From assembly GCA_964634205.1 (NCBI GenBank), contig CAZWKE010000004.1, positions 26,663 to 90,662 of the forward strand: a stretch of 64,000 nucleotides of DNA. The letters run 5' to 3'. Both the position numbers and the translations under genes were made by a program. Source of the stretch: an uncultured Spirochaetaceae bacterium. GTDB taxonomy: Bacteria; Spirochaetota; Spirochaetia; SZUA-6; RPPD01. Positions 411 to 17,566 of this stretch are shown piece after piece (the first letter of the stretch is position 1; each line of letters starts with the position of its first letter). Under the pieces are notes generated by a model. That model did not search any database and had not been told where the DNA came from. It saw only the letters and a list, made by a program, of their open reading frames with translations.

Positions 411-1529
411 TCAAAAATGCGCATTGAATTCGATGGCGATCGGGAGCCAGTATCCGCTTCCATCAGCAAGGGGTTGGGATAGAGGAAAAGCTGTATAAAG
501 CGTGAGGCTCGTCCAATTCCAGATATTGAGATAGACGCCGATCCCGGTTGAGAACAAAAAACCATCCTTGGGATAATAGCAAAAATTATAATACCCGGAA
601 TCGAAAAAGACAAAAACGCCCGGGGTGAAAGAGTAGATAATTTTAAACGCCGGTAGGTTCATCCGGTACTCGATATTCAAGACGCTCTTGAACTGTCCAT
701 CGAACCGCGTGTCTTCATAGCCGCGCACTGCGTATCCTAGACCGTAGCGGGGGTGTAATCCGCCGAAGATCTGCTGGATGTTGATTGGGAGATACCGACC
801 CGTACAATAATCGACCGAGAAGAAAAGGCCGATATAGCCGGAGAGGATGTTGAGTTTGGTCTTGGGGTCAATGTCAAAGAGGGGTAGAAAGGCCTTGGCC
901 GTAGCGTTTAACTGGACAAAATCGGCCATGCCGTAGAGATCGTTCCAGAGCCACTCGGGACCCCAATTGACCGTGGCCTCGACGTAAAAACCGCTAAAGA
1001 GCCGGTGGGGTGAGGTCTTGTCGAGATCGTTATAGTCGAGCCCAAAGAGAAAAGAGTTTTCAAAAATGCCGGGCGCATCCGGGAGGGCGCTCGCAATGAT
1101 GAGCTCATTCTTACTCGAGTCCGGGATGATGTAATCGACACGCGTTTTGTAAAACAAAAAGGCCTGCAGGAGATTGATTTGCAGTTTGTTGTTAAAGATA
1201 AACCCTTGGGCGATGCCGAGGTCTAACCGGGCGTTACAACGCCTGTAATAGGGATCCGTGGAAGGATTAAAGCCTTCGTCGCCCGAATAGAGCCGATTTG
1301 AGGGATCGCGGAAATAGTTCAGCCACTCATACCCGCCGCCGACATAGAGCCAGATCACCGTGTCGGGATTGGGGACTTGAGTCAGGCCGCGAAACCCGAG
1401 GCCGATATCGGCGCCGAACAAACGCAAGCCCAAATCAAAAAGGAGCGGGTCGCGTTCGGCAGAGTCATCGGTATAGCCCGATAATGCAATACATAGAAAT
1501 AGAACAGCGGATAAAATATTACGCAGCAT
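411..1529 (-). CDS. Outer-membrane beta-barrel protein (Omp85/surface-antigen-like barrel, no POTRA region evident)
   Basis: 372 aa. N-terminal hydrophobic signal-like segment (LSAVLFLCIALSG). Alternating aromatic/hydrophilic beta-strand pattern throughout. C-terminal residue is Phe (…EFNAHF), typical of OM barrels. Confidence 0.5.
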   Translation of the reverse strand: MLRNILSAVLFLCIALSGYTDDSAERDPLLFDLGLRLFGADIGLGFRGLTQVPNPDTVIWLYVGGGYEWLNYFRDPSNRLYSGDEGFNPSTDPYYRRCNARLDLGIAQGFIFNNKLQINLLQAFLFYKTRVDYIIPDSSKNELIIASALPDAPGIFENSFLFGLDYNDLDKTSPHRLFSGFYVEATVNWGPEWLWNDLYGMADFVQLNATAKAFLPLFDIDPKTKLNILSGYIGLFFSVDYCTGRYLPINIQQIFGGLHPRYGLGYAVRGYEDTRFDGQFKSVLNIEYRMNLPAFKIIYSFTPGVFVFFDSGYYNFCYYPKDGFLFSTGIGVYLNIWNWTSLTLYTAFPLSQPLADGSGYWLPIAIEFNAHF

Positions 1530-1604
1530 GGTGGTTTCCTTTCAAGATTAATAATGGTGAATTATTGTGATATGTCATGCTAAATCCCACTCTATAGTCC
1601 TTTG

Positions 1605-2465
1605 TCAGCCTTGGCGAAGTACAACAACCAGAACAATGAAAAGGGCTAAAGCCAAACGATAGATGGCAAAGCCGAGAAACGAGTGTCGACGTAAGAATCC
1701 TATCAGAAACTTGATACAAAGCAAGCCGCTTACGGCCGCCGCTAAAAAGCCAATGGGAAAGATTATGAGTTCCTTGCCGGAAAGGGTGGTCGTATGTAAT
1801 TGGGTGATAAAATCAAAAGCGCTCTTCAGGCCGGCACCGGCGATAATCGGTGCCGCCAAAAGAAATGAGAACCGGGCCGCTGTTTGACGTTTTAGCCCGC
1901 AGGCCAGCCCCGCCGTTATCGTCACCCCGGAACGCGAGACGCCCGGGAATATCGCTAAGGCCTGGGCCAATCCGATGATCAACGAGGCGCCTAGTCCGGG
2001 ATTGCCGGGTTTTTGATAGCGTTCAGTGAAACGATCGACAATGAGCAAGATTATCGCCGGTGCCCCTACAGCGCCGGCCATCAGAAGCATTGAAATACCC
2101 GGAATGGGGATGATGTGATAGGCTTCCGTGATTTTTCCCTCAAACAAAAGACCCGCGATACCGCCGGGGATACAGGCGAAAAGCAAAAACCAGGATAGTC
2201 TACGATTTTGATCCGAGCCGATCTTACGCTCGGCTATGCTTTTCACCCACGCGCAGAAGAGCGTTGCCACGTCGCGGCGGAAAAAAATGAGAATGGCCAG
2301 CAAAGTGCCCAGGTGGAGGGCCACGTCGAAGGACAAGCTCGCGATCGTGGGATCAGTCCAGCCAAAAAGCCAGGGAATGATGACGAGGTGGGCCGAGCTG
2401 GAGATCGGCAAGAATTCGGTGATGCCCTGGACGATGCCCAGGGTGATGGACTCAAGAATAACCAT
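1605..2465 (-). CDS. uppP: Undecaprenyl-diphosphatase
   Basis: 286 aa polytopic membrane protein with the UppP/BacA signature GITEFLPISSSAHL near the N-terminus and the second conserved PGVSRSG motif. Confidence 0.9.
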   Translation of the reverse strand: MVILESITLGIVQGITEFLPISSSAHLVIIPWLFGWTDPTIASLSFDVALHLGTLLAILIFFRRDVATLFCAWVKSIAERKIGSDQNRRLSWFLLFACIPGGIAGLLFEGKITEAYHIIPIPGISMLLMAGAVGAPAIILLIVDRFTERYQKPGNPGLGASLIIGLAQALAIFPGVSRSGVTITAGLACGLKRQTAARFSFLLAAPIIAGAGLKSAFDFITQLHTTTLSGKELIIFPIGFLAAAVSGLLCIKFLIGFLRRHSFLGFAIYRLALALFIVLVVVLRQG

Positions 2466-2521
2466 AGGATTTTCTCACGCTTTCTTGTTGCTTCAATTCC
2501 GAACACGATCTAGAACTGACT

Positions 2522-3304
2522 TTATCGCGTACGCGCCAGGTTTGCGGAAAACCAGGACCCCAGTGCGGTCATACGGTTGAAGAACGATTTTTGTTTCAAT
2601 TTCTCAATCCCCAGGAATCGCATTGTATCCGCCATCGTGATCGCGTACACGATTATTTTATCCCGCGTCGGCACGATGAAAAACGAAGTGTGCATCTTCT
2701 TCCTGCCCACTATGGTGAAAATGGCGAAATTAATGTTCGTCAGGTTGACGAGATCGACTTGGTACCAGCCTCCTTTCGTGCTGAAGGAGAAATCGTTGTA
2801 CATGTCGCCGGTCTGCTCCTCCTTCTCGTAGACAACGTAGTGTTTCTCCGTGGGCACAGTGGCCACTACCGGGTCGGGGAGCGGCCTCGTGTCGTGGAGC
2901 GAGGCGACACGATAGGAATCATAGATGAAGGTCTCCATCTTCCGGAGCGACTCAGAGAAGACCTGGAGCCCTTTCATGGCAGTGAAGGCGGTGAAACTCT
3001 TGAAGATCTTCAAGCCTATCTTCTTGTCGTCGGAGGCAGGCGGCCGGTCGATGAGAAAGAGGCTTTCGGCGGCGACGGACACGTCGAGACCCTGTGCCAG
3101 CGCGTTCACGTCGGCGGCAAAGGGGCTGTTCTTCCAAATCGGGAGGTCGGCCGGCTTGTCGCCGATATTGTGGAGTTCGCCCTGCCGGAAAAGCTTGGCG
3201 CAATCAGCCGCGGGCAGAAAGGAGAGGTAGTTCCTGGCGCTCTGTTGGGCGAAAGCGGAAACGGAAACTACGGCGAAAATGAGAATCACTACGGGAATTT
3301 TCAT
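2522..3304 (-). CDS. Hypothetical secreted protein
   Basis: 260 aa with a clear signal peptide (MKIPVVILIFAVVSVSAFAQQ). No family recognised. The overlapping plus-strand ORF 2591..3307 has high-GC antisense-type composition and was not chosen. Confidence 0.5.
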   Translation of the reverse strand: MKIPVVILIFAVVSVSAFAQQSARNYLSFLPAADCAKLFRQGELHNIGDKPADLPIWKNSPFAADVNALAQGLDVSVAAESLFLIDRPPASDDKKIGLKIFKSFTAFTAMKGLQVFSESLRKMETFIYDSYRVASLHDTRPLPDPVVATVPTEKHYVVYEKEEQTGDMYNDFSFSTKGGWYQVDLVNLTNINFAIFTIVGRKKMHTSFFIVPTRDKIIVYAITMADTMRFLGIEKLKQKSFFNRMTALGSWFSANLARTR

Positions 3305-4578
3305 TGATCTTTCCTTTCAGTCTTCGGTTTTGGGCCGCCGAGGGAATCGAGCGTTTCCATCAATGACTCCAAGGCCGACCGGCATTGAGACGACACCGGT
3401 CGCGCCGCGCGCATTTGTCGGAGTACATTGTCGATAAAGCCGTCCACAACCTTCCATTTGTCGGGGGCCATTTCCTGTAGCCGGGCCTGGGCGTCGTCCC
3501 ATGCCGATTCGAGGTCGGTAACCCTTGTTTTGGCATCGTTAAAGCGGCTGGCCTTGAGCAGCCGGAGCGTGTCGTCCGTTATGACGCGAAAGCCGGAGAT
3601 GTCTCCGAGCGGCGCCGTCGGAGACGAGGCGGCCGCGGCCTCGGCGTGGAGGTTATGCTGGCGCAAGGCATATCCCGTGCCGGCAACAATAACGAAAACC
3701 GCAGCCGTGGCCAAAACCTGCCGCAAGACTCTCCTCGGTTTCGGATCGTCGGCAACGCTGGCCTTCGGCTTGGGGATGATATCCTTCTTTGTGAAAGAGA
3801 GGAAAACCACGGTAGCAAGGATGGCGACGAGGAAAATTACGCTGGTAAGTGTCGGTCCCAAGCTCAAGCCGCCCTTAGAGACGGATTGCGAGAGAAAATC
3901 CCCAAGCGAGGCGCCGAGCGGTCGGGTCATGATGTACGCCACCCAGAACGAGAGCACGGCGTCCAGACCGATCCGCCAGGCGATGGCCATCGAGGCAATG
4001 GTACCGAGGACAATGAAACCCGTGACCATGTATCCCAGGCCGAGTCGCTCGGCCATAAGGTCTCCCGCGGCGGTGCCCAGGGCGAAGGTGAAGAGGATGG
4101 CCAGCCAATAAAAGGCCTCGCGTCGGCGGGTAAAAATTGAATGGATGGAAAGTGTTTTTTCAAAGGCGAACCAGATGATGAATGTAATCAGCAGGGCGAC
4201 AGTGAACACGAGCGTGCTCACCTCCAATGGGACGCCCAATTTATCCGTAAGGTTGTCCGTAACGAGCGTTCCGAAGACGCTGATCAAGACCACAGTGAGC
4301 CAATAGATCCCCGAGATGTACTTGTCCGCCCTGAATTGGAAGAATAGTATGGCGGCAAGCAGTATTCCCATCGCGACAGACGTGCCGGTGAGGCCCAAAC
4401 CGAGGTCGACGTTCAGGAAGTCGGAGAAGGTCTCGCCGATCGTCGTGCAGAGGACTTTAATGATCCAAAAGTAAATCGTCACCGCCGGGACTTTGCTGAG
4501 GATAATGCGCGATCGTTTCAGATGTTCTATTTCCATCAATTTCTCCTTGGTAGATAATAATAAAAAGTATGACTCCAT
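3301..4578 (-). CDS. Hypothetical polytopic membrane protein with C-terminal soluble domain
   Basis: 425 aa. Multiple hydrophobic helices in the first ~250 residues (two similar halves), then a charged C-terminal ~150 aa. True start may be an internal Met (MEIEHLK…). No family recognised. Confidence 0.5.
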   Translation of the reverse strand: MESYFLLLSTKEKLMEIEHLKRSRIILSKVPAVTIYFWIIKVLCTTIGETFSDFLNVDLGLGLTGTSVAMGILLAAILFFQFRADKYISGIYWLTVVLISVFGTLVTDNLTDKLGVPLEVSTLVFTVALLITFIIWFAFEKTLSIHSIFTRRREAFYWLAILFTFALGTAAGDLMAERLGLGYMVTGFIVLGTIASMAIAWRIGLDAVLSFWVAYIMTRPLGASLGDFLSQSVSKGGLSLGPTLTSVIFLVAILATVVFLSFTKKDIIPKPKASVADDPKPRRVLRQVLATAAVFVIVAGTGYALRQHNLHAEAAAASSPTAPLGDISGFRVITDDTLRLLKASRFNDAKTRVTDLESAWDDAQARLQEMAPDKWKVVDGFIDNVLRQMRAARPVSSQCRSALESLMETLDSLGGPKPKTERKDQ

Positions 4579-4672
4579 AAAATGAAAAAGACATGAAATT
4601 TTACCGGATTTTTTCTCACGGGCGGGGGTTTTTTTTCATGCCGATTTCATCTTTTAACGTTATCTTTAAAAT

Positions 4673-5362
4673 ATGCGCATTTTGATTGTTGAGGACGAAC
4701 GCAAGATTTCCTCATATGTAAAGCGCGGGTTGAAAGAACTGGGTTATGCTGTCGACGCAGCATTCACCGGGCAGGAAGCGTTGGATATGGCCGCCGTCGT
4801 ATCCTATGATCTCATCGTCCTGGATATCCTGCTGCCGGGAATCGACGGACTCAGCGTGTGCCGCCGGCTGCGAAGGCGGGGCTTGCGTGTTCCGATTCTC
4901 ATGCTCACCGCGCGGGACGCCGTCGACGACCGGGTGGCCGGCCTCGACGCCGGGGCGGACGACTATCTGGTAAAGCCGTTCGCCATGAAAGAGCTACAGG
5001 CCCGTTTGAGAGCCCTCTCTCGGCGAGGGTCCGAACGGCCGAAATCGCCGATGTTCCATATTGCCGATTTGAGCATAGATACCACGACGCGTCGCGTTCG
5101 CAGAGGAGACCGCGCCATCGAGCTGACCGCCAAAGAATACGCGGTATTGGAGTGCCTGATGCGCGAACCGGATCGCGTCTTCACGCGGGCCGTGATCGTC
5201 GAGCACGTCTGGGATTACGACATCTACAATGAATCCAATGTCGTTGATGTGTATATTCGCAACCTGAGGCGCAAGATAGACGACGGGTCAGACGTAAAGC
5301 TGATCCATACCGTCCGGGGGACAGGCTACCGCCTTTGCGCCGGGGACAAGGCCGACCAATGA
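4673..5362 (+). CDS. OmpR/PhoB-family two-component response regulator
   Basis: 229 aa. Receiver motifs (MRILIVEDE…, LDILLPGIDG, LMLTARD) plus a C-terminal winged-helix trans-regulatory domain (…YIRNLRRKID…VRGTGYRL). Confidence 0.9.
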   Translation: MRILIVEDERKISSYVKRGLKELGYAVDAAFTGQEALDMAAVVSYDLIVLDILLPGIDGLSVCRRLRRRGLRVPILMLTARDAVDDRVAGLDAGADDYLVKPFAMKELQARLRALSRRGSERPKSPMFHIADLSIDTTTRRVRRGDRAIELTAKEYAVLECLMREPDRVFTRAVIVEHVWDYDIYNESNVVDVYIRNLRRKIDDGSDVKLIHTVRGTGYRLCAGDKADQ

Positions 5363-6735
5363 CGCTGCGCGTCCGCGTGACCTTGTGGGTTTCAGGGCTG
5401 CTGATCGCGGTCATTGTGGGATTGGGAGCTTTCGTCTACGGCAGTCTCCGGCGGGGATTGGAGGCATCGATCGACGATTCTCTGCGCATCAGTGCCTCGC
5501 AGGTCGATGCCTCCCTCGATATTGAAAATGAAACGATCGATTTCAATGACGCGCCTCAGGAAAATGACGCCCGTACCAGCCTGCATGAGCGCGGGTTGAC
5601 GGTGCGGATCCTTAATCCGGCGGGTAGAGTTCTGGAAGCATTTGGTCCATACCGCGCTCTGCCCGTCGAGTCCGTCGACACGGCGGCTGTCCCGGCGGGC
5701 AAGCCTGTATTTTTGACTGTGCGTGATCCGAAAACCTCCGACAATGTACGGATGTATACGACGCCGATACGCAAAAACAACAGAATAATCGGCTTCATCC
5801 AGGTGGCGCAGAGTCGGAAAGGGATGGAAGACTCTCTGCACCGCCTCCTTTCGGCGCTGCTCTTGGGAGGCCCGCTTCTCGTGCTGCTCGCCGCTCTAGG
5901 CGGTTTCCTCCTCGCCGGCCGTACACTCGCCCCTATCGACCACATCACCCGCACCGTGCGGCGCATCTCCGCCGAAGACCTGGGCGCCAGGCTGAATCTG
6001 CCCGCGACCGATGACGAGGTCGGGCGGCTGGCCGCTACTTTCGACGAAATGCTGGAAAGGCTCGAGGGGGCGTTTCGCCGCGAACGCCGGTTCACCGCTG
6101 ACGCTTCCCACGAGCTGCGCACCCCACTTGCCGCCATGCAGATAATTCTCTCGGTGGTACGGGAGCGACCCCGTTCCGCGGCTGATTATGAACAGGCCCT
6201 GGGCGATATCTCCGACGAAGTCGGTCGGTTACGCGCGCTGTCGGAAGATCTATTGCGGCTGGCGCGCGGTGATACGCGCCGGATCGTCGAACGCGAAAAG
6301 GTCAACTTCTCCGAGTTGCTTAGCGACGTGAGCGATTCACTTCGGCCTTTGGCGGAAGCCAAGGGGGTGGCGCTTGCCTGCTCGGTCACCGAAGGCCTCG
6401 TCCTGCAGGGGGACCGGGATACTTTGATCCGGTTGTTCGTCAATCTCCTTGACAATGCGGTGAAGTTCACCGAACGCGGGTCCATCGAGATTTCCGCCCA
6501 AGCAGATAGGGAATGGATTCTGGCGACGGTCTCCGACACCGGAATCGGCATTCCGGCCGAGCACCTCCCGCATGTTTTAGAGCGATTCTACCGCGTGGAC
6601 AAATCGCGATCCGGGCGGGGAACCGGCCTCGGCCTCTCGATCGCACAGGAAATCGCGCTGTCTCATGGGGGAACGCTCAAGCTGACAAGTGCCCCCGGCA
6701 GGGGGACGACGGCCGTCGTACAGCTGCCGCTATAA
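5359..6735 (+). CDS. Sensor histidine kinase (periplasmic sensor, HAMP, HisKA, HATPase_c)
   Basis: The ATG overlaps the response-regulator stop (ATGA). It has two TM helices flanking a ~140 aa extracytoplasmic region. The H-box is ADASHELRTPL. The N, G1 and G2 boxes are NLLDNAVKF, DTGIGI and GTGLGLSIA. Confidence 0.85.
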   Translation: MTLRVRVTLWVSGLLIAVIVGLGAFVYGSLRRGLEASIDDSLRISASQVDASLDIENETIDFNDAPQENDARTSLHERGLTVRILNPAGRVLEAFGPYRALPVESVDTAAVPAGKPVFLTVRDPKTSDNVRMYTTPIRKNNRIIGFIQVAQSRKGMEDSLHRLLSALLLGGPLLVLLAALGGFLLAGRTLAPIDHITRTVRRISAEDLGARLNLPATDDEVGRLAATFDEMLERLEGAFRRERRFTADASHELRTPLAAMQIILSVVRERPRSAADYEQALGDISDEVGRLRALSEDLLRLARGDTRRIVEREKVNFSELLSDVSDSLRPLAEAKGVALACSVTEGLVLQGDRDTLIRLFVNLLDNAVKFTERGSIEISAQADREWILATVSDTGIGIPAEHLPHVLERFYRVDKSRSGRGTGLGLSIAQEIALSHGGTLKLTSAPGRGTTAVVQLPL

Positions 6736-6749
6736 AATAATCGCCGTTT

Positions 6750-6782
6750 TATTTCATCTGTATTTCATCTGTATTTCATCTC
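6750..6782 (+). promoter_or_regulatory. Three tandem 11-bp direct repeats (TATTTCATCTG x3, last copy ...CTC), directly downstream of the histidine-kinase stop and upstream of the lipoprotein/ABC operon
   Basis: Read directly in the sequence. The 11-bp period (one helical turn) is the classic architecture of OmpR/PhoB-family binding sites. Confidence 0.4.
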
Positions 6783-6849
6783 TGGTGGGGATCTTTTTTA
6801 TAGGGACGGCGTTTAGCCGTCCGTCATCCAAGTGCAAGGAGATGCTCAT

Positions 6850-7461
6850 ATGAAAATTTCCATTCTGCCTACAGCCTTTGTCCTGTGCGCGGCGTTTCTG
6901 TTGCCGGCCGGTTGCGGGAAAGCACCCGCGGCCGCCGGAGGGACGACGGCCTCTTCCGCCGCGACACAAGAGCAGCTTCCCGAGCCGAACAGCTTGGTTG
7001 GCGACATCCCGGACACCCAAGTATTCGTCAGGTATATGTCGAAGGTGGGAAAGTATTCGATCGAAGCGCCCGAAGGATGGGCCAGAACGGAAAACGGCGG
7101 CAATGTGAAGTTTACCGACCACTTCGACGGCGAGGAAGTAAGCCTCAGCGTGAGCGACGCTGCTCCGACGATCGACAGCGTGAAACGTGATCAGACGCCC
7201 GCCCTTCTCGCGAACGGCCGCGCGGTTAAGATTGAGTCCATAAAAAAAGCCGTCCTGGCCAACGGTACGGCTGTCGTTCAGATCATTTATAACTCCGATT
7301 CCGATCCGGATCCGGTGACGGACAAGCATGTACGCCTCTCCGACCTCACGATCCTTTTTTATCACCAAGGCCGACTGGCGGCGCTCACCCTCTGGTCCCC
7401 CAGTGGGGCGGACAATGCCGATCAATGGAAGCGCATTGCCGAGAGCTTCAGATGGCGCTGA
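6850..7461 (+). CDS. Lipoprotein (hypothetical), first gene of the ABC transporter operon
   Basis: Signal peptide plus lipobox (MKISILPTAFVLCAAFLLPAGC). AGGAG RBS-like sequence upstream. Stop overlaps the next gene. Confidence 0.6.
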   Translation: MKISILPTAFVLCAAFLLPAGCGKAPAAAGGTTASSAATQEQLPEPNSLVGDIPDTQVFVRYMSKVGKYSIEAPEGWARTENGGNVKFTDHFDGEEVSLSVSDAAPTIDSVKRDQTPALLANGRAVKIESIKKAVLANGTAVVQIIYNSDSDPDPVTDKHVRLSDLTILFYHQGRLAALTLWSPSGADNADQWKRIAESFRWR

Positions 7462-7462
7462 C

Positions 7463-8128
7463 ATGACGGTACTCAATGCCGAAGAACTGTATCGATTCTA
7501 CCACAGCGGAGAGGAAGAAACAATCGCCCTGCGCGGCGTGAGTCTGACCGTTGAAACCGGAGAGATGACGGCGGTTGTTGGCCCGTCGGGAAGCGGAAAA
7601 TCCACGCTGCTGTCCTGCCTGGCAGGGCTGGATGAACCCGACGGGGGCACTGTGCGTCTCCTGGACCGACGCCTGACACGACGTCCCGAATCCGAAAAGG
7701 CTTTGCTCCGGGCGCGCCATATCGGGATCATGATGCAAACGGGGAACCTCTTCGACCAGCTTACGGTGGGACAAAATATACTCGTCTCCATGCGATTGGC
7801 ACGCGCGGTGGACCGCCGACGGATCGAGACGCTGCTCGATCTGGTGGGCCTCTCCGGGCGGGAGCAGACCCTGCCGACGCGCTTGTCCGGCGGGGAGGCG
7901 GCGCGCGCGGCGCTGGCGGTGGCACTGGCGGCCGATCCGGTTCTTCTCCTTGCCGACGAACCCACCAGTCAGGTGGACGACGAGATGGAGCGGCGGCTCC
8001 TGCGGATGATCGCCCGCTATTGTGAATCAGGCGGAGCGGCGGTGCTCGTGACACATAGTGATGCTGTAGCGGGCGCGGCCCAGTTCATCGTGAAGTTGGT
8101 GGACGGAAAGGTGGTGAGCCATGAGTGA
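7463..8128 (+). CDS. ABC transporter ATP-binding protein (MacB/LolD/FtsE-like family)
   Basis: Walker A GPSGSGKST, signature LSGGEAARAA, Walker B LLLADEPT. Start chosen at the ATG immediately after the lipoprotein stop (the track ORF started earlier, inside the lipoprotein). Confidence 0.85.
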   Translation: MTVLNAEELYRFYHSGEEETIALRGVSLTVETGEMTAVVGPSGSGKSTLLSCLAGLDEPDGGTVRLLDRRLTRRPESEKALLRARHIGIMMQTGNLFDQLTVGQNILVSMRLARAVDRRRIETLLDLVGLSGREQTLPTRLSGGEAARAALAVALAADPVLLLADEPTSQVDDEMERRLLRMIARYCESGGAAVLVTHSDAVAGAAQFIVKLVDGKVVSHE

Positions 8129-8780
8129 CGTTTTGGTCGAGGGCCGGCGCTTGGGACGCAGCTATCGCCGCGGCAAAACGGAGGTCGCGGCGCTCGCAGA
8201 TGTCGATGTCACGGTTCACGCGGGAGACCGCATCGCGGTTGTCGGACCTTCGGGCGGGGGCAAGTCCACCCTCCTGCAATTGATGGGGGGCCTGGACGTT
8301 CCTACTTACGGACGTATCGTATGGCCCGCGCTCGGCGAACGTTCGTCTCTTCGTCCCGGAAAGATCGGTTACGTGTTCCAGACAGAAAGCCTCCTCGCTC
8401 CGCTCTCCGTTTTGGAAAACGTGGAGCTGCCCCTCCTCCTGGCGGGCGAATTGCGGACAGCAGCCCGCTTGCGCGCCCGGGAAGTCATGGAACGGCTTGG
8501 CTTGGAGGCGATCCTGGAAAAGCTACCGGAAGAATTGTCGGGGGGACAAGCGCAGCGCGTGGCCATGGCCCGCGCCCTCGCGGCGAGCCCGCGGTTGATC
8601 CTGGCGGACGAGCCCACCGGCCGGCTTGATCACCCGACGGCCCATCGCCTCTTCGACGTCATACTGGGGGCGCTCACCGCGGACGACACTGCGCTAGTAG
8701 TCGCCACCCACGATATGGCGATCGCGGAGCTTCTGCCGGTACAATGGCGCATTTCGCATGGTCGCCTGGAGGAAACATGA
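8121..8780 (+). CDS. ABC transporter ATP-binding protein (second ATPase of the same family)
   Basis: Walker [10 protein letters not shown], signature [10 protein letters not shown], Walker B ILADEPT. Overlaps the upstream ATPase stop by 8 nt. Confidence 0.85.
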
Positions 8781-11440
8781 TGGGACAGATCGCCGCATGG
8801 TTGAAGGGTACCCTACTACATCAATTCGGCCGCGTTATGGGTGCGGCATTGGGGGTAGCATTGACGGTCGCTTTCATCGCCTCCCTGGGCGCGTTTATGA
8901 CGACGAGCGCTGCCCAGCTGACGCGCAGAGCGGTTCACGACGTGCCGGTGGATTGGCAGGTCCAGATCGCCCCGGGCGCCGACGCGGCATCCGTCCGTTC
9001 CCGGATCGAATCGAGGACGACGGTGTGCCGGCTGGAGCGGGTCGACTACGCTTCGGTGGACGGATTTCGCGCCCGGACGGGCGGTACGGTACAGACTACG
9101 GGCGCGGGCAAGGCCGTCGGTATCGGTGATCATTATTTTCATAGTTTCCCGGCGGAATTGCGGCAGCTGGTGGGAGCTACGCACGGACTGCTGGTCGCCC
9201 AGCAATTGGCGGCCAATCTGCACGTGACGGTGGGGGATACGCTCGAAATCCTCCGTGTCGGGTTGCCCCCGGCAAAGGTGCGCGTGAACGGCGTCGTGGA
9301 CCTGCCGTATGCCGATTCCTTCTTCCAGGCCGTCGGTGTGACGGCGGGACTCGCGCCGCAGGCTCCACCGGACAACGTGGTCATTCTGCCCGAAGCCCTC
9401 TGGGATTCCCTGTTCCGGCAGCAGCAACGCATCAGTCCGGATTCAATACAAACCCAATTCCACCTGCGTCTCGGCCTTTCGCTCCCCGGCGATCCGACGG
9501 CCGCCTATGACAAGGTGAATCGGGAAGTGAAAAAAACGGAGGCGAGGATCGCCGGCGCCGCAATCGTCGCCGATAACTTGGGAACCCGGCTGCTCGCCGT
9601 CAGGGCCGACGCATTGTACGCGCAAGTGCTGTTTCTCTTTCTTGGATTGCCGGGCATGATTCTGGCCGTCCTCCTGACGTTGGCCGGCGCCGCCTCCGGC
9701 GGCCAGCGGCGTGCCGCCGAGCAAGCTCTCTTGCGCACGCGAGGCGCTTCGCCCGCCCGTGTACTGCGAATCCAAGCCTCCGAAGCCGTCATCGTGGGCA
9801 TCGGCGGGCTGGTCGTCGGGGCCGCGCTCACGCTGGCCGCCTCGCGCTGGCTGGGAACCGAAGTCTGGGACCTGTTGCGTTACGGGCCGGGTTGGATCGT
9901 CTTCGCTTCCATTGTCGGGCTGGTTCTCTCGCCGGCGGCCGTCGTCATCCCTGCCTGGCGGGAGTCGCGCCGTTCCACGGTGCTATCGGCTCGCCGGATG
10001 GTAAAGCCTTCCTCCGCTCCGCTGTGGCGGCGATTGTGGCTGGATGCGATCGTTCTGGCGATCGGCGCCGTAGAGTTTTGGCGGACGGCGAGTACGGGCT
10101 ACGCGGTAGTGCTGGCCCCGGAAGGAGTAGCCGCAAGCTCAGTGAATTACGAGGCGTTCATTGCCCCCGTCTGCCTGTGGCTCGGCGGCGTGCTGTTGAG
10201 CGCTCGCCTGTTGGGAGTCGGCCTGAGCCGCGGCCGGCGCGCATTGTCGCGCCTGCTGTCGCCCCTCGCCCGATCTTTGTCGGGAGCGGTCGCCGGGTCC
10301 CTCTCGCGCCGGAAAGGCCTGATGACGCGAGGGACCGTCATGGTCGCCCTGGCCGTCGCCTTTGCCGCGTCCACGGCGGTCTTCGACGCGACCTATAACG
10401 CCCAGTCGCGCGTGGACGCCGAGCTCACCAATGGATCCGACGTAACCGTGACCGGAACAACGGCCGCGCCGCCGAGCGCGAAACTGGCCGAGCTACGCTC
10501 GATTCCCGGCGTCGCGGCCGTCCAACCTATGCAGCACCGCTTCGCCTACGTGGGAAACGATTTGCAGGATTTGTTCGGCATTGATCCCCTCACTATCGGG
10601 GAAGCGACGAAAATTTCCAACGCCTTTTTCGCGGGAGGGAACTCGCGGGAGATGCTGGCCGCCCTGACGCGCATGGACGACGGGGTATTGGTATCTGAAG
10701 AGACGCGTGTCACCTACCAGCTCAACCCAGGCAACCCGCTGAACCTGCGCCTGCAGTCGGCGAAAGACCTTCAGTATCACACGGTGAAGTTCCACGTCGT
10801 GGGGGTCGTGCGCGAGTTCCCCACCGCGCCGAAAGACTCTTTTCTGGTCGTCAACTCGTCCTACCTGGCGCGTGAGACGGCCACCGCCGGCGCGGAGACG
10901 GTACTTATGCGCGTGATGGGCGATCGGAACGCCGTGGCCCGGCGGGCGCGCGCTGTCGTGACCGATCTTCCGGGAGTTAAGGTAACGGACCTGGGATCGG
11001 TGCAGCGGGCGATCAGTTCCAGTCTGACGGCGGTCAGCCTTCAGGGACTGACCCGGCTGGAATTGGCATTTGCCGTACTTCTGGCGGCGGGAGCTGCAGG
11101 ACTGATTCTGGGCTTGGGGCTGTTGGAGAGGCAAAAAATGTTCGCCATTCTCAAGGGGCTGGGCGCCAACGCCCGGCAACTCGGTGCATTTCTTTGGAGT
11201 GAAGCGCTGTTCATGCTCGTTCCGGGGATCATCATCGGCGGACTCCTCGGACTAGGCGTTGCGCAGGTGTTGGTAAAAATATTGACGGGTATTTTCGATC
11301 CTCCTCCTGAAACCCTTACAATTCCCTGGCTGTATCTCGCGATCCTCTGTATCGCAGCCTTCGCCTCGACGGTCGCCGCGGTCGTGACGCTGAGAATATA
11401 CTCGCGCTGTCGGGTGCTGGAAACTCTGCGGGGTCTGTAG
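8777..11440 (+). CDS. ABC transporter permease with two FtsX-like modules (fused MacB-type permease, about 888 aa)
   Basis: One TM helix, a large extracytoplasmic domain and three TM helices, repeated twice (residues ~20-410 and ~420-890). ATGATG start overlaps the ATPase stop. Confidence 0.8.
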   Translation: MMGQIAAWLKGTLLHQFGRVMGAALGVALTVAFIASLGAFMTTSAAQLTRRAVHDVPVDWQVQIAPGADAASVRSRIESRTTVCRLERVDYASVDGFRARTGGTVQTTGAGKAVGIGDHYFHSFPAELRQLVGATHGLLVAQQLAANLHVTVGDTLEILRVGLPPAKVRVNGVVDLPYADSFFQAVGVTAGLAPQAPPDNVVILPEALWDSLFRQQQRISPDSIQTQFHLRLGLSLPGDPTAAYDKVNREVKKTEARIAGAAIVADNLGTRLLAVRADALYAQVLFLFLGLPGMILAVLLTLAGAASGGQRRAAEQALLRTRGASPARVLRIQASEAVIVGIGGLVVGAALTLAASRWLGTEVWDLLRYGPGWIVFASIVGLVLSPAAVVIPAWRESRRSTVLSARRMVKPSSAPLWRRLWLDAIVLAIGAVEFWRTASTGYAVVLAPEGVAASSVNYEAFIAPVCLWLGGVLLSARLLGVGLSRGRRALSRLLSPLARSLSGAVAGSLSRRKGLMTRGTVMVALAVAFAASTAVFDATYNAQSRVDAELTNGSDVTVTGTTAAPPSAKLAELRSIPGVAAVQPMQHRFAYVGNDLQDLFGIDPLTIGEATKISNAFFAGGNSREMLAALTRMDDGVLVSEETRVTYQLNPGNPLNLRLQSAKDLQYHTVKFHVVGVVREFPTAPKDSFLVVNSSYLARETATAGAETVLMRVMGDRNAVARRARAVVTDLPGVKVTDLGSVQRAISSSLTAVSLQGLTRLELAFAVLLAAGAAGLILGLGLLERQKMFAILKGLGANARQLGAFLWSEALFMLVPGIIIGGLLGLGVAQVLVKILTGIFDPPPETLTIPWLYLAILCIAAFASTVAAVVTLRIYSRCRVLETLRGL

Positions 11441-11888
11441 TACGGTTCTCGACCGAACGCCGCATTTGCGACGCCGGAAATATCGCCGGAAGCGATAATG
11501 TGATTTTATTGAACTACAAGATTTCACTATTGGAATGCAAGTAGAGTTGGATGAGATGTATCTTCCGTTGGTGGAAAGTGATAATTACAAACGTTGTGCG
11601 CATCAGTGTGCACTCTATTAACACTCGCCTTGCAGTAATTCTAAATCCGGCAAAACGGTACTAATCTGAAAAAGCGAGCTGAGTGAACATTTTAGAATCT
11701 GAGATTGTGATATCAAGAGGCAACGTCGTTTCCATTATTATTTTCACTATTAATAACTCACATGAAATCTAAAAAAGATACGAATTAGGGTTGCCTTAGT
11801 AAAAATGGCTTTTACAGGGAACAAATTTAAAATTGCAGGTAATGCCCTTTGTCTTAGCCTCCGAAGATGTAGATAAGGAGCGTTTTAT

Positions 11889-12380
11889 ATGAAGGAACTG
11901 AAGCTATTTATCAAAGATATGCAGAATGAGGCGGCCCTGCTGAAAGAGTTTGCCGAGCTTGAAGATCAGATGCAGTTGTGTGCGGGTGAGAACAGGTGGG
12001 AGGATATTGAGCGGGTGATCGGTGAGCTGAAAGGAAAGGCGGGGACATTAAACAGTATTGAGGAATGCCGCTGCGCTTCTTTTGATGCCCTGAAGAAAAA
12101 ACTGGGGTTACCTTGCGAGACCGGATTTTTAAAACTGCTGCCCATTGTACCGGTAACCGAACGGGAACGACTGCTTAGCGCGTACAGAAAACTGAAGGTA
12201 GCGGTTTTTTCGGTCAAAGGGGCAACCACGCGTCTGACCTATTATTTCAGGTCCATGGAGGGCTCGTTCAAAAAGGTCCTGGGCGAGTTGTTCCCCCACA
12301 GGAAGGGCAAGATCTATTCCAAGGACGGCAGACCCAAGAAGGTTCCCGACGACGCCCTGTTATTAAATAAGCACTTATAG
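11889..12380 (+). CDS. Putative flagellar export chaperone (FlgN-like) upstream of flgK
   Basis: 163 aa helical, acidic protein immediately 5' of flgK-flgL, which is the conserved position of FlgN. Assignment is by position and size only. Confidence 0.35.
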   Translation: MKELKLFIKDMQNEAALLKEFAELEDQMQLCAGENRWEDIERVIGELKGKAGTLNSIEECRCASFDALKKKLGLPCETGFLKLLPIVPVTERERLLSAYRKLKVAVFSVKGATTRLTYYFRSMEGSFKKVLGELFPHRKGKIYSKDGRPKKVPDDALLLNKHL

Positions 12381-12390
12381 GAGAAATATT

Positions 12391-14271
12391 ATGCTCTCGA
12401 CATTTTCCGGAATTGAAATAGGAAAGAGGGGGGTGATTGCCCATACCCAAGGTCTCATTACGGTGGGTCACAACCTGAATAATGCCGGTGTTGATGGCTA
12501 TTCGCGGCAGCGGATTGAGTTTTCTGCCGCCGATCCCATCTACCTTCCCGGTTTAAACAGGGAGCAGACCCCGGGACAGATCGGCCAGGGCATGCAGGTG
12601 GAACGCATAGAGCGTATCCGCGATATGCTTTTGGAAGGAGAAATAGTCAAGGAAACCGGGAACCAGGGGTATTGGGAGTCCCAGGATAAATATCTGAAGA
12701 TGCTTGAGCAGGTGTATAATGAGCCGACCGAGCATTCCGTCAGGGCCCTGATGGACAAGTTCTGGGAGTCGTGGCAGGAGCTTTCGGTCAACCCGTCCCA
12801 GATGGCGGCCAGGCAGGCGGTACTGGAACGGGGCCGGACCCTGCTTGACGGTATCCACCATGCCTATCAGAAATTCAGGGGAATTCGCGACATGCTTGAA
12901 GGGGACGTGGTCGGTACGGTGGACAGGGTGAATTCATTGGTGCGTGAGATTGCCGCCTTAAACGAGCAGATCCAGAAGGCGCGTGCCCTGGGAGACAACC
13001 CGAACGATATGATGGACAAACGGGACAAGAATATTGAGGAGTTGTCCAAGCTGATCGATATTACGGTCAATTACAACCAGGACCCGGACGAGTTGATTAT
13101 TTATACGAACGGCCGGCACATTGTGCAGGGCAAGCAGTTCCTGCAGTTTGCCACGCAAAAGACCGAGGCCAACGAGGGATACTCCACCGTCATCTGGAAG
13201 GACACCGGGGAGGCGGAGCAGTTCCGCGGGGGCAAACTGGCGGGATTTCTCCACCTTCGTGATGTTGAGACCAGGGGGGAGATACAAAAACTGGACCTCA
13301 TGACCATGAACTTCATCGACGCGGTCAACGCGGTACACCGCAGGGGATACGGGCTGAATGAAAAAACCGGTCTGGAGTTTTTTAAGGAGTACCCGTATGT
13401 GTTAAACGCAAACGGGAACTATGACCGAAATGGTGACGGCGCTTTTGATTCTTCTTATATCTTTCGAATGGCGGGCAAGAATACCCTTGATCCGCAGGCC
13501 CTGATCGGTATCCGCGGAACAATTACCCTCTCCGGTCCGACCGGGAACGTGACGGTGGATTATTTCCCCACCGATACGGTAAAGGACGTGGTGGCGCGCA
13601 TAAACTTGAGCGGCGCGGAAGTATCCGCGCGCCTGGACGAGGAGGGGAAACTCTCGCTCAAGGGAATGCCCGCCCAGGATACCGACAATCCTGATTTTGT
13701 CATCCGGCATGTTGAGGATTCCGGTGAGTTTCTGGCAGGCTATGCCGGCCTGCTGCAGGCACCCGGCGCGGCCGGGGCCTATAACTGGGCACAGCAGGAC
13801 GCGGTGGCCGCCCTGCGGAACGACGGGGCCACCTTTGCCGTAGCGCCCCTGGCACACCCTTCGGCCTGGATCGAGGTGAACAAGGACCTCGTGAACGAAC
13901 CGGCCTCTATTGCGGCGGCATCCGGGGTAAACGGCAGGTCCCAGGGGCCTGAAGACGGTTCGATGGCGCTGACCATCTCCGACCTGCGCTATAAAAATGT
14001 GATGATCGGCGATACACTTACCTTTGACGGGTATTTTGCCGAACTGGTGGCGTCCATCGGGTTGCGCGGCGAGCAAGCGGGAAAGGTGCTTTCAACGGAG
14101 AATCTTATCCTGAAAAATCATAAAGACCTGCGTGAATCCATTTCAGGGGTAAATATAGATGAGGAACTGACGACAATGTTGAAGTTTCAACACGGATACG
14201 CGGCCTCGGCGCGTTTTATCACCGAGTTCGATAAAATGCTTGACATTATCATTAATAGAATGGGGGTCTAA
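12391..14271 (+). CDS. flgK: Flagellar hook-associated protein 1
   Basis: 626 aa. N-terminal flagellar rod/hook family motif (…GLITVGHNLNNAGVDGYSRQRIEF…) and a conserved C-terminal helical region (…QHGYAASARFITEFDKMLDIIINRM). Confidence 0.9.
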   Translation: MLSTFSGIEIGKRGVIAHTQGLITVGHNLNNAGVDGYSRQRIEFSAADPIYLPGLNREQTPGQIGQGMQVERIERIRDMLLEGEIVKETGNQGYWESQDKYLKMLEQVYNEPTEHSVRALMDKFWESWQELSVNPSQMAARQAVLERGRTLLDGIHHAYQKFRGIRDMLEGDVVGTVDRVNSLVREIAALNEQIQKARALGDNPNDMMDKRDKNIEELSKLIDITVNYNQDPDELIIYTNGRHIVQGKQFLQFATQKTEANEGYSTVIWKDTGEAEQFRGGKLAGFLHLRDVETRGEIQKLDLMTMNFIDAVNAVHRRGYGLNEKTGLEFFKEYPYVLNANGNYDRNGDGAFDSSYIFRMAGKNTLDPQALIGIRGTITLSGPTGNVTVDYFPTDTVKDVVARINLSGAEVSARLDEEGKLSLKGMPAQDTDNPDFVIRHVEDSGEFLAGYAGLLQAPGAAGAYNWAQQDAVAALRNDGATFAVAPLAHPSAWIEVNKDLVNEPASIAAASGVNGRSQGPEDGSMALTISDLRYKNVMIGDTLTFDGYFAELVASIGLRGEQAGKVLSTENLILKNHKDLRESISGVNIDEELTTMLKFQHGYAASARFITEFDKMLDIIINRMGV

Positions 14272-14278
14272 CTGAATT

Positions 14279-15523
14279 ATGAACAGGGTCAGCAGTAATA
14301 TGGCAAGTATGGACGCGCAGTATAATATGATGCTGCGTGAATGGAAGATGAACCAGATGCAGAATAAAATGGGCGCCCAGACAAGAATCAAGGATCTGCG
14401 TGATGATCCCCTGGCCGCGGCACGTTCAACACGCCTGCAGTCGCAGCTTTTTCGCATGGGTAGATATAAAAAGAACATCGAACTGACCCAGGGTAACCTT
14501 AACTATAGTGAGTCGCGCCTGACCAATGCCCTGGAGGTGCTGCAGCGGGTGCGTGAGCTTTCGGTACAGGGGGCCAACGGCGTATACAGCAAGGACCAGA
14601 TGCGAGACATGGCGGTAGAGGTCAACCAGCTGCTGGAACAGCTGGTCTCACTGGCCAACTCGCGGAACGGCATGGGGAACACGGTGTTTTCCGGGTTTGA
14701 GTCGCACCTGGAACCCTTTCTGGTGATGCGCGGCAGGGTGGAAGGCAGCGCGAGTGATTTTATTACCGCCCTGCATTACCGCGGGGACATCGGGAAAAAC
14801 ATGGCCGAGGTATCCGAGAACACCTATGTGCAGATGAACATCCCCGGCAACCAGGCGTTTTGGGCGGAGAACTCCCATGTCTATGCCAATATAGATGCCA
14901 CCACCTACCAGGTCCAGGCCGATTCCACTATTCGCATTGACGGCGTGGCCATAGACCTGGAAGCGGGAGACAATATTTCCGCGATCATCCATAAGATAAA
15001 CGAGGCCCCGCTGGCGGTGCGGGCGCGGCTTGACCCGGTAAAGGATTCTCTGGTGCTGGAAACCACCACCCCCCACGGACTCTGGATGGAGGATGTGGGA
15101 ACGGGTACGGTCCTGCAGGACCTGGGAATACTGCAGAGAGGACGGTCCACCCCTCCGTATAATATCGCCGATACGGCCAATGTATTCGGCGGTTCTATCT
15201 TTGATATGGTGATGGCGGTACGTGACAGCCTCTACAAAGGTGATTCCGAAGGGGTAAACAAGGCCCTGGGAGGGATGGACCTTTCCATCGAGAGTGTTAC
15301 CTCTTCCTTGGCCAAAATCGGTTCACTGGATTCGCGGCTCCGGGTTACGGCCAAACGGCTTGATTATGAAGAGCCTGAAGTGGTAAAATTGAATGCGGAA
15401 GATGTTGATCTGGATGTAACCCAGGCTATTACCGAATTAAAAATGCTGGAATATACGCACCAGGCGGCCCTGGCTACATCCGCACGGGTTTTACGACCCA
15501 CATTATTAGACTTTTTGAGGTAA
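14279..15523 (+). CDS. flgL: Flagellar hook-associated protein 3 (flagellin-like N/C termini)
   Basis: 414 aa immediately after flgK. Flagellin-like N-terminal helix (…MASMDAQYNMMLREWKMNQMQNKM…) and C-terminal helix. Confidence 0.85.
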   Translation: MNRVSSNMASMDAQYNMMLREWKMNQMQNKMGAQTRIKDLRDDPLAAARSTRLQSQLFRMGRYKKNIELTQGNLNYSESRLTNALEVLQRVRELSVQGANGVYSKDQMRDMAVEVNQLLEQLVSLANSRNGMGNTVFSGFESHLEPFLVMRGRVEGSASDFITALHYRGDIGKNMAEVSENTYVQMNIPGNQAFWAENSHVYANIDATTYQVQADSTIRIDGVAIDLEAGDNISAIIHKINEAPLAVRARLDPVKDSLVLETTTPHGLWMEDVGTGTVLQDLGILQRGRSTPPYNIADTANVFGGSIFDMVMAVRDSLYKGDSEGVNKALGGMDLSIESVTSSLAKIGSLDSRLRVTAKRLDYEEPEVVKLNAEDVDLDVTQAITELKMLEYTHQAALATSARVLRPTLLDFLR

Positions 15524-15528
15524 CATCT

Positions 15529-15978
15529 ATGAGAGTGAATACCAAGGCATACGGTCACATCGAAGTGGATGAAAGGCAAAAGATATATTTTCCTTTCGGG
15601 ATTTTGGGATTTGAAAACCTGAAATATTATGTGCTTCTGGATGCCAAGCAGCAGCCTTTTTACTGGCTGCAGTCCATGGACGTGGTTGAGATCGCGTTTG
15701 TGCTTATCGACCCTTCGGTGTTCAGACCCGACTATGTGTTGGATGTCAGTAAAGAAGAACTGGAGGAGATCGGGATAAAAAACAAGGAAGATATTTTGTG
15801 TTTTGCCATTGTGACCATCCCCGACAACCTTTCCTCCATGACTGCCAATCTGCAGGGGCCCATTATCATCGACCGAAGCACACGTGTCGGCAGGCAGTCC
15901 ATTAGTACCGATTCGAGATGGAAGGTTCGCCATCCCATTATGGAAGAACTTGCTTCATTAAGGCAGGAGACATGTTAG
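15529..15978 (+). CDS. fliW: Flagellar assembly factor FliW
   Basis: 149 aa. The FliW signature region (…[19 protein letters not shown]…FYWLQSMD…) precedes csrA. Confidence 0.9.
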
Positions 15979-17036: not shown

Positions 17037-17451
17037 GCTTCATTCCTTCTATTTGTATTATACGATCGCCGTTCTGTCGGATTCCGATCCGAATGTTTAT
17101 CGTATCAGCGGGCAGTAACGAACCCGCCTTTTCAGGCCATTCAATTACCGTTATCCCGTTACCATAGAAAAGCTCATCAAGCCCCAACTCATCAAGCTCG
17201 CTTTCGCGGTTGATGCGATAGAGGTCAACATGATGCAGCGGGGGGCTGCTTTCATACTCACTGATAAGGGTAAAGGTGGGACTGGTAACATCCTCAGCGA
17301 TACCCAGTCCCCGGGCAAGGCCTTTTACCAGGGTGGTTTTCCCGGCACCCAGCGGACCCTGCAGGGCAACCACCGCGCCCGGTGTCAGTTGTTGTACCAA
17401 CTGTCTGCCGATCTCGAGTGTTTCTGCTGTTGATGTGCTTGTCTTTGTCAT
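17017..17451 (-). CDS. tsaE: tRNA threonylcarbamoyladenosine biosynthesis ATPase TsaE (YjeE)
   Basis: 144 aa. P-loop GPLGAGKTTLVKGLARGLG plus the TsaE motif SPTFTLISEY. Overlaps tsaB by 20 nt. Confidence 0.85.
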   Translation of the reverse strand: MTKTSTSTAETLEIGRQLVQQLTPGAVVALQGPLGAGKTTLVKGLARGLGIAEDVTSPTFTLISEYESSPPLHHVDLYRINRESELDELGLDELFYGNGITVIEWPEKAGSLLPADTINIRIGIRQNGDRIIQIEGMKHEHTGD

Positions 17452-17566
17452 CAGGATAATTTTTAGAATTTATAGAAAAATGAAATCCGGGTCAATGTAT
17501 AATTGTATAATAGTAAAAATAAACTTGACAAGCAAAGTTTGGAAAAACTACAGTGTAAGAAGAAGT

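Follow-up and report, generated by a model that had tools for sequence, protein, structure and literature searches.

This study concerns a cassette of four genes within a 64,000-nt stretch of contig CAZWKE010000004.1, from an uncultured Spirochaetaceae bacterium; the whole of this stretch is called the window below. A preliminary description of positions 7463 to 11440 had proposed an ATP-binding cassette (ABC) exporter of unusual build, with two separately encoded ATPases and one permease that contains two complete FtsX/MacB modules, accompanied by a lipoprotein and a two-component system. The limits it gave are exact, the ATG of the ATPase 1 gene lying at 7463 and the final base of the permease stop codon at 11440. 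Both separate ATPase genes and the single two-module permease are borne out, with intact reading frames of 221, 219 and 887 residues, respectively. The same machine, together with an exported protein of PsbP fold, recurs in nearly constant gene order across much of the bacterial domain, and here we describe its parts, its distribution and what it may do.

Results

Layout of the locus

On the plus strand, the genes follow one another in the order response regulator, sensor kinase, exported protein, ATPase 1, ATPase 2, permease (Table 1). The gap between the stop codon of the exported protein gene and the start of the ATPase 1 gene is 1 nt, the two ATPase genes overlap by 8 nt, and the ATPase 2 and permease genes share a 4-nt ATGA overlap; these four genes therefore form one translationally coupled operon. 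The terminator-like hairpin at 11481-11506 comes from a consensus scan whose matches do not exceed the expectation from shuffled sequence.

Table 1. Features of the locus, in window coordinates, with the four-gene core and its 3' end first.
Feature	Position	Strand	Details
Exported PsbP-fold protein, first gene of the four-gene core	6850..7461	+	203 aa; signal peptide ending LLPAG-C22
ABC ATPase 1, 221 aa	7463..8128	+	Pfam ABC_tran E 1e-31; orthologue group LSGGEAAR/GEVD
ABC ATPase 2, 219 aa	8121..8780	+	Pfam ABC_tran E 7e-29; orthologue group LSGGQAQR/GQLD
Fused permease, 887 aa, 10 transmembrane helices (TM)	8777..11440	+	Pfam FtsX twice; best Foldseek match YbbP
Terminator-like hairpin (weak) with T-rich tail	11481..11506	+	40 nt 3' of permease stop; consensus scan
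OmpR-family response regulator	4673..5362	+	Pfam Response_reg and Trans_reg_C
Sensor histidine kinase, 458 aa	5359..6735	+	TM, periplasmic domain of ~130 aa, TM, HAMP, HisKA, HATPase_c
Three perfect tandem copies of TATTTCATCTG, 11-bp period	6750..6781	+	Tandem Repeats Finder score 64, 100% matches
Single 9/10 copy of the repeat unit, GATTTCATCT	4643..4652	+	21 nt before regulator ATG
UppP/BacA undecaprenyl-diphosphate phosphatase	1605..2465	-	Pfam BacA E 1e-74
DUF6675 protein with signal peptide	2522..3304	-	Pfam PF20380 E 5e-41
DUF347 membrane protein, four 2-TM repeats and C-terminal soluble tail	3301..4578	-	Pfam PF03988 E 4e-58, 4 stretches

The permease is one polypeptide with two FtsX modules

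We take the ATG at 8777 as the permease start because it fits all homologues; the longest open reading frame (ORF) begins at an in-frame ATG upstream, at 8744, and has 898 residues. The best 120 homologues are 55-100% identical to the permease and colinear with it over 95-100% of the query, and their lengths run from 859 to 898 residues, nearly all of them 882-890. This colinearity and uniform length rule out a frameshift or a pair of genes mistaken for one, which the preliminary description had named as a way in which it could fail.

Pfam FtsX (PF02687) matches the whole permease twice, and each half searched by itself also passes the gathering cut-off of 25.5 bits (29.3 and 44.2 bits). The N-terminal and C-terminal modules align with one another profile to profile (hhalign, 94.6% probability, E 7e-8, 300 columns) through TM1, the outside domain, TM2, the coupling helix and TM3, and BLASTP gives 26% identity between the halves across the outside domains. 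The earlier topology, one TM, a periplasmic domain and three TMs, twice over, was right about the repeated modules but missed two linker helices, TM5 and TM6, which bring the total to 10. Module 1 thus consists of TM1, outside domain 1 (about residues 54-266) and TM2-4, the linker of TM5-6 (about residues 416-485), and module 2 of TM7, outside domain 2 (about residues 553-755) and TM8-10. Hydropathy, the secondary structure of an AlphaFold2 (AF2) model and the positive-inside rule agree on 10 TMs with both termini inside, the short loops carrying 27 Lys and Arg in 135 residues on the inside and 2 in 57 on the outside. The outside domains, between TM1-2 and TM7-8, are both alpha/beta in the AF2 model and of about 200 residues each. 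Cytoplasmic coupling segments occupy roughly residues 306-326 and 786-806; the one after TM2 bears the conserved motif RRxEQALLRTRGAS, and the one after TM8 a different conserved motif, ERRRxFAILxALGAK.

The AF2 model has a mean predicted local distance difference test score (pLDDT) of 72.8 and a predicted template modelling score (pTM) of 0.67, with stretches of low confidence in both outside domains. Its best Foldseek matches are the structures of Escherichia coli YbbP, 9ge6 (E 1e-18) and 9ge7 (4e-17), over the full length, followed by LolE and LolC for each half and then by BceB (E 2e-10 to 8e-8). The outside domains are covered in these alignments, which run full length for YbbP and half length for LolE/LolC. 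A hidden Markov model (HMM) search with the permease against the PDB likewise finds YbbP (E 7e-5) and YtrF (E 2e-3). The preliminary description had also pointed to the MacB_PCD family (PF12704), for which the Pfam search finds no match in the window permease; the family is recorded for many permease homologues and, in Desulfosporosinus, gives a weak match to each of the two outside domains. Curated models of the neighbouring families score far below their cut-offs: 25.8 bits against 999 for YbbP (NF041854), 46 against 622.3 for the duplicated ADOP permease (TIGR03434) and 18.4 against 362.45 for the LolC/E equivalog (TIGR02212). Membership in these families, and in the LolD family for the ATPases (scores below), was rejected on these grounds. 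The architecture of a MacB/FtsX-type machine is confirmed, and we conclude with high confidence that the permease is a YbbP-like fusion of two FtsX modules with an internal duplication.

Two diverged ATPases, each with a complete set of catalytic motifs

The two ATPases of the window are 40% identical, and each carries a Walker A motif, a Q-loop, a signature, a Walker B motif with the catalytic Glu, and an H-loop. From the loci of the genome scan described below we assembled 75 ATPase 1 and 76 ATPase 2 sequences. Identity is 61% and 55% within the two groups and 33% between them (maximum 41%), and none of 153 sequences has its nearest neighbour in the wrong group. In a motif census, group 1 has the signature LSGGEAAR with the D-loop GEVD, and group 2 has LSGGQAQR with GQLD. 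Such clean orthologue groups indicate that the duplication is older than the spread of the family and that both copies have been kept ever since.

Many heterodimeric ABC exporters have one degenerate ATP site. That arrangement was considered for this pair and rejected, since both groups retain Walker A, Q-loop, signature, Walker B Glu and H-loop; both ATP sites look catalytically competent, and the pair is not a heterodimer with one dead site.

Both ATPases match LolD, MacB, YbbA and FtsE best, and the PDB relatives of ATPase 1 include LolD, MacB and YbbA. ATPase 2 is the less diverged and more LolD/YbbA-like of the two: it scores 151.7 bits against LolD and 146.7 against YbbA in the PDB, and the LolD model TIGR02211 (cut-off 307.75) gives it 194.6 bits and ATPase 1 151.5. 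Both are nucleotide-binding domains (NBDs) of LolD/YbbA/MacB type. It is a reasonable inference that each docks on one of the two coupling segments of the permease, and the co-conservation of the pair leads us, with moderate confidence, to propose an ATPase 1-ATPase 2 heterodimer. The obligate asymmetric heterodimer of the preliminary description is too firm a wording for this.

An exported partner of PsbP fold

The first gene of the operon encodes a signal peptide followed by Cys22 (LLPAG-C), so the mature protein is probably a lipoprotein. Among the orthologues from the 80 loci, a signal peptide is always present; many taxa have the lipobox Cys and proteobacteria have a plain signal peptide, from which it follows that the protein is always extracytoplasmic and not always anchored to lipid. 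Its sequence is a borderline match to Pfam PsbP (PF01789; 20.9 bits, cut-off 23.5) and a sequence search against the PDB gives no match, while a fold search returns the PsbP/Mog1 fold, an alpha/beta sandwich. Databases name it 'hypothetical', 'lipoprotein' or 'PsbP-related'.

Three invariant motifs of surface type mark the family: NPxGDIPDxQVF, with which the mature domain begins, and, further on, SDPDPVTGK and PxGADNxDQW. The first of these precedes the folded domain and might be a docking peptide for the permease. Cyanobacterial PsbP (CyanoP), mycobacterial LpqN and Mtc28, and Salmonella DcrB share the fold at 9-17% identity; for none of them was an operon shared with FtsX-type ABC genes found, and the cassette protein differs from all of them in its own invariant NPxGDIPDxQVF and GADNxDQW. 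We hold with moderate confidence that the PsbP-fold protein is the outer-face partner of the ABC complex.

A discrete and widespread family

Scanning one genome per species with the permease returned at least 550 genomes with a relative, from which 80 loci were kept (49-64% identity to the permease, plus one at 91%). They come from Spirochaetota, Chloroflexota, Firmicutes, Armatimonadota, Cyanobacteria, Deinococcota, Actinomycetota, Gemmatimonadota, Acidobacteriota, Planctomycetota and the alpha-, beta-, gamma- and delta-proteobacteria. Gene order could be assessed at 72 loci, those where 2.15 kb or more precedes the permease: the order PsbP-like gene, ATPase 1, ATPase 2, permease holds at 70 of them, and both ATPase genes are present at 71. 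The preliminary description had counted the lipoprotein and the two-component system alike as co-encoded partners; the former is indeed constant (70/72), and the latter is only a frequent neighbour, a related regulator-kinase pair lying within 8 kb at 37 of the 72.

The cassette also occurs on 31 plasmids or chromids, in Rhizobium, Mesorhizobium, Agrobacterium, Paraburkholderia, Deinococcus, Rhodococcus and Chroococcidiopsis, under generic RefSeq names only. Searching plasmids by tblastn down to E 1e-6 gave members at 44% identity or more and fragments, with nothing between, and no intermediate or one-ATPase architecture was seen at that depth. An exhaustive profile search yielded 623 clusters at 50% identity with E values up to 1e-30; many of those listed are fragments, and the full-length ones listed are mostly about 840-920 residues. 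Rhizobia, Agrobacterium, Paraburkholderia, Rhodococcus, cyanobacteria and Firmicutes all have members, whose only annotations are 'hypothetical protein', 'ABC transporter ATP-binding protein' or 'FtsX-like permease'. The family is thus discrete: its relatives are at least 44% identical, nothing more distant appears to E 1e-6 on plasmids and the models of known families fall far under their cut-offs, which supports the earlier suggestion that it may be a distinct subfamily. No published study of the cassette was found in the literature on two-ATPase FtsX systems, PsbP-like proteins with FtsX, DUF347, COG4705 and PF03988.

Another Spirochaetaceae contig, from a metagenome-assembled genome (MAG; L007, positions 1-3107), is 92% identical at the DNA level to window positions 8402-11508. 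The similarity stops at 11508, 68 nt past the permease stop, beyond which the flanks differ. In both contigs the cassette has a GC content of 0.62-0.64 and its flanks 0.48-0.49; in the window, where the region considered is about 2500-11508, the cassette has 0.62 against 0.48 for the remainder. GC at third codon positions (GC3) is 0.69-0.75 in the cassette and overlaps that of the host genes (0.53-0.70), so the GC island was found only partly convincing as proof of horizontal transfer. Taken together, the plasmid copies, the 50-60% identity across phyla, the boundary seen in L007 and the GC content suggest that the cassette is a mobile module.

The two-component system and candidate regulatory repeats

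The nearest NCBIfam models of the regulator and the kinase are the heavy-metal families TIGR01387 (254.1 bits, cut-off 279.2) and TIGR01386 (267.6 bits, cut-off 292.55), the latter matched in full length including the sensor domain; both scores lie just under the curated cut-offs of these CusRS/CopRS/SilRS/CzcRS families. The kinase start in Table 1 was taken from the gene call on an identical contig (L004). Its periplasmic domain gives ArlS_N and 2CSK_N matches at residues 24-169 of the 466-residue ORF.

The array of TATTTCATCTG ends 68 nt before the ATG of the lipoprotein gene, and its three copies are the only exact ones in the window. The imperfect copy GATTTCATCT lies in the 94-nt divergent intergenic region between the DUF347 gene and the regulator gene. 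OmpR-family binding sites usually are direct repeats spaced by one helical turn, and the repeats at 6750-6781 are a candidate binding site for the OmpR-type regulator; GATTTCATCT could be a further candidate site for it. As candidate sites, the repeats would link the two-component system to the ABC operon, and the operon is probably controlled through them by the adjacent CusRS-like system.

Accessory neighbours

Divergently from the response regulator runs a row of DUF347, DUF6675 and UppP genes, with UppP last and the DUF6675 start overlapping the DUF347 stop by 4 nt. NCBIfam models for undecaprenyl-diphosphate phosphatase score up to 235 bits against UppP, under their cut-offs, and the gene is possibly an accessory one outside the core. 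At 19 of the 72 loci, a DUF347 gene is found no more than 8 kb from the cassette. A targeted search found PAP2 or BacA within that distance at 15 of about 81 loci; at six (L031, L043, L045, L053, L064, L073), from Deinococcota, Firmicutes, Chloroflexota, and beta- and alpha-proteobacteria, PAP2/BacA is immediately adjacent to the permease, the PsbP-like gene or DUF347. BacA adjoins the cassette in L031, L035 and L045, and a PAP2 gene lies directly upstream of the cassette on a Rhodococcus plasmid. A Pfam census of about 200 neighbouring ORFs returned as further recurrent families PepSY (5), VTT/DedA (4), PAP2 (4), BacA (3) and YfhO (2). This pattern, repeated in a minority of loci, suggests a connection with envelope stress and with the metabolism of lipid phosphates or polyprenyl phosphates.

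DUF347 repeatedly stands beside PAP2/BacA (in the window and in L031, L035, L043, L045, L053, L064, L073 and L088), some of the genes overlapping by a few bases. In Frankia, DUF347-UppP operons are reported to be induced by lead, and DUF347 was proposed there, as the authors' speculation, to be a metal transporter (PMC4531530), the one lead on DUF347 found in the literature searched; the pairing of DUF347 with phosphatases seen here fits those operons. The adjacency may be a lead to the function of DUF347.

Further out, a minus-strand ORF of 372 residues with a signal peptide (411-1529) adjoins UppP; it has no Pfam family and a weak match to the Omp85 family (36 bits, cut-off 200). Directly 3' of the cassette, 11889-15978 holds an unassigned 163-residue ORF, FlgK, a flagellin-N (FlgL-like) protein and FliW, followed by an EAL-TPR protein at 17276-19243. 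This flagellar row fits a motile spirochaete host.

Discussion

Fusion of two modules into one permease had been taken to be an unusual feature of this locus, but the fused permease alone is not unusual, since YbbP has exactly the same topology; a 2018 review of MacB already described such fusions for YbbP, with two periplasmic domains, and for BceB, with one (PMC5985334). The cryo-electron microscopy study of YbbAP-TesA (PDB 9GE6, 9GE7, 9GE8) showed that YbbP has 10 TMs with a TM5-6 linker, two periplasmic domains about 26% identical to one another and coupling helices after TM2 and TM8, and that the complex contains two copies of the single ATPase YbbA and works by mechanotransmission with a periplasmic partner (PMC12646458). 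The cassette resembles it in the following: one 10-TM permease with TM5-6 between the modules, two large periplasmic domains (TM1-2 and TM7-8) whose mutual identity of about 26% is the same in both proteins, NBDs of LolD type encoded by separate genes and a dedicated extracytoplasmic partner. It differs in that YbbA is a single gene whose product is a homodimer, whereas the cassette has two diverged ATPase genes (33-40% identical); in that the E. coli partner is the lipase/thioesterase TesA, whereas here it is a PsbP-fold protein, no TesA-like gene having been seen in the neighbour census of the cassette loci; and in its frequent linkage to a two-component system, DUF347 and lipid-phosphate phosphatases. 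Nor is the permease an orthologue of YbbP by NF041854, being 15% identical to it in the structural alignment with an HMM E of 7e-5.

LolCDE offers the other close comparison. Its FtsX modules, LolC and LolE, which carry periplasmic Porter/Sabre domains, likewise form an asymmetric pair, its LolD is the closest relative of ATPase 2, LolE and LolC come next among the structural matches to each permease half, and it passes its substrate to a soluble periplasmic partner, LolA. LolC and LolE are, however, separate polypeptides and LolD a homodimer (one sequence in two chains in the solved PDB entries), whereas the cassette permease is fused. The asymmetry of Lol lies in the membrane subunits only and that of the cassette in both layers. 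The partners differ in fold, PsbP as against LolA, and the cassette family occurs also in monoderms, which have no outer membrane.

With its FtsX modules and NBDs of LolD/MacB/FtsE type the system falls, on sequence grounds, within the type VII ABC superfamily. The characterised members that we checked (YbbAP, LolCDE and eight of Bacillus subtilis) all have a homodimeric ATPase: for the eight B. subtilis systems, NBD1 equals NBD2 in every row of the published table (PMC11466899), and no example of two unlike NBD genes is mentioned in the review of architectures (PMC5985334). A conserved ATPase pair together with a PsbP-fold partner defines a new and widespread variant of type VII ABC systems.

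How would such a machine work? On balance we think it probable that the four genes encode one type VII mechanotransmission complex with a PsbP-fold partner, most likely with ATPase 1, ATPase 2 and permease in a 1:1:1 ratio, which is regulated and serves in an envelope-stress context. The permease would be a YbbP-like pseudo-dimer, each of its diverged FtsX modules presenting its own coupling helix to one ATPase. ATP-driven closure of the ATPase heterodimer would zip the stalk helices and move both outside domains, and this movement would do work outside the cytoplasm. The likeliest such work would be to pull a lipid-linked or amphipathic molecule out of the outer leaflet, or to release one from an inhibitor, and to hand it to the PsbP-fold partner or act through that partner. 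In the window, expression would be set by the CusRS-like two-component system through the 11-bp direct repeats before the lipoprotein gene, and the recurrent DUF347 and PAP2/UppP genes would place the whole in an envelope-stress response, possibly one that touches the polyprenyl-phosphate carrier cycle. Gene structure, domains, topology, folds, the conserved order, the two orthologue groups and the intact motifs are observed; how the ATPases assemble and on which module each docks, whether the partner binds, control by the two-component system, what the substrate is and which way the work is directed are inferred. Our confidence in any particular substrate is low; that the cassette is an envelope-stress module is probable.

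Several observations weigh against this picture. At L049 (7491-10661, on a MAG of Acidobacteriota) the permease has no adjacent ATPase genes, and its ORF carries, fused in frame, a piece similar to the N-terminal end of the PsbP-like protein. L050, from a Smithella MAG, has both ATPases and no PsbP-like gene in the 1.1 kb available upstream. Rearrangement or faulty assembly could account for either exception. The ATPases may act as homodimers used alternately instead of as a heterodimer. The model of the permease is only moderate (mean pLDDT 72.8, pTM 0.67), and the sequence is 15% identical to that of YbbP. Many loci lack the two-component system, DUF347 or the phosphatases, which are for this reason accessory, and the link to polyprenyl phosphate rests on a minority of neighbourhoods; moreover, PAP2 is a broad family that is not specific to undecaprenyl diphosphate. 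Experimental data on any member of the family were not found in the literature searched.

Among the alternatives, the one that survives best, though we consider it improbable, is that the cassette senses and resists antimicrobial peptides in the manner of Bce systems: the permease would release undecaprenyl pyrophosphate or lipid II from the grip of a peptide antibiotic and pass a signal to the adjacent two-component system, and UppP or PAP2 would add to resistance as BcrC/UppP do in Firmicutes. The Bce logic has been described (PMC5985334), and BceAB-BceRS has in common with the cassette a fused FtsX-type permease of 10 TMs, genomic linkage to a two-component system and a context of undecaprenyl-pyrophosphate phosphatases. 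BceB is a structural match to the permease, a two-component system is adjacent at about half of the loci, and UppP/BacA and PAP2 genes recur beside the cassette. Against this reading, BceB's only outside domain sits between TM7 and TM8, and the window permease has two; there is one BceA gene and no PsbP-like partner; and BceS has no sensor domain and depends on BceB, unlike the window kinase, which has its own periplasmic domain of about 130 residues and a full-length match to CusS-type kinases. The cassette family is also common in diderm proteobacteria.

More doubtful again is a role in metal stress. The CusRS/CopRS-like two-component system would then be a metal sensor, and clearing or sequestering the metal, or mending the damage it does to the envelope, would fall to the ABC complex with DUF347 and the acidic PsbP-like partner. 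To our knowledge, no type VII ABC system moves ions, and canonical metal-resistance genes did not turn up in the neighbour census. It is true that the regulator and kinase are nearest to the heavy-metal models TIGR01387 and TIGR01386, the sensor domain included; both scores nevertheless remain under the curated cut-offs, and the sensor domain, when its sequence is read, has no obvious cluster of His, Met or Cys. The invariant Asp/Asn clusters of the PsbP-like protein (GDIPD, SDPDP and GADNxDQW) and the presence of the cassette on plasmids of soil bacteria would suit such a role, as would the lead-induced DUF347-UppP operons of Frankia, for which the idea of a metal transporter is speculative (PMC4531530).

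The least probable of the three is that no heterodimer forms, the ATPases making separate homodimers under different conditions or one of them serving another transporter or regulation: each has the complete motifs for an active homodimer, and the ATPases of the B. subtilis ytr operon do belong to separate transporters, YtrB2CD and YtrE2F2 (PMC11466899), but this operon has no second permease, the ATPase 1-ATPase 2 order is fixed with both kept at 71 of 72 loci in about a dozen phyla, the two groups have been distinct since before the family spread, the gene overlap favours equimolar synthesis, and the permease offers two different conserved coupling segments. An anti-phage defence system was rejected, PADLOC showing only generic ABC-ATPase similarity.

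Returning to the mechanotransmission complex, a bolder form of it would make the cassette the first example of a fully asymmetric type VII machine, with unlike ATPases on unlike FtsX modules, each ATP site coupled to its own outside domain, and a PsbP-fold partner, which together with DUF347, PAP2/UppP and the CusS-like two-component system acts on polyprenyl-(pyro)phosphate carriers or on whatever binds them. We regard this extension as unlikely, if less so than the alternatives just discussed. Were the motor and the membrane layer both asymmetric, the coupling of each ATP site to each outside domain could be addressed, a question made approachable by the fact that the two ATP sites can be mutated separately. 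The genes that recur beside the cassette offer a lead, open to testing, on what DUF347 does and on a new envelope-stress response. If the reading in terms of polyprenyl carriers is true, the cassette would parallel BceAB-BceRS/BcrC in function, with other components and in both monoderms and diderms, and would form a previously unrecognised envelope-stress module across bacteria.

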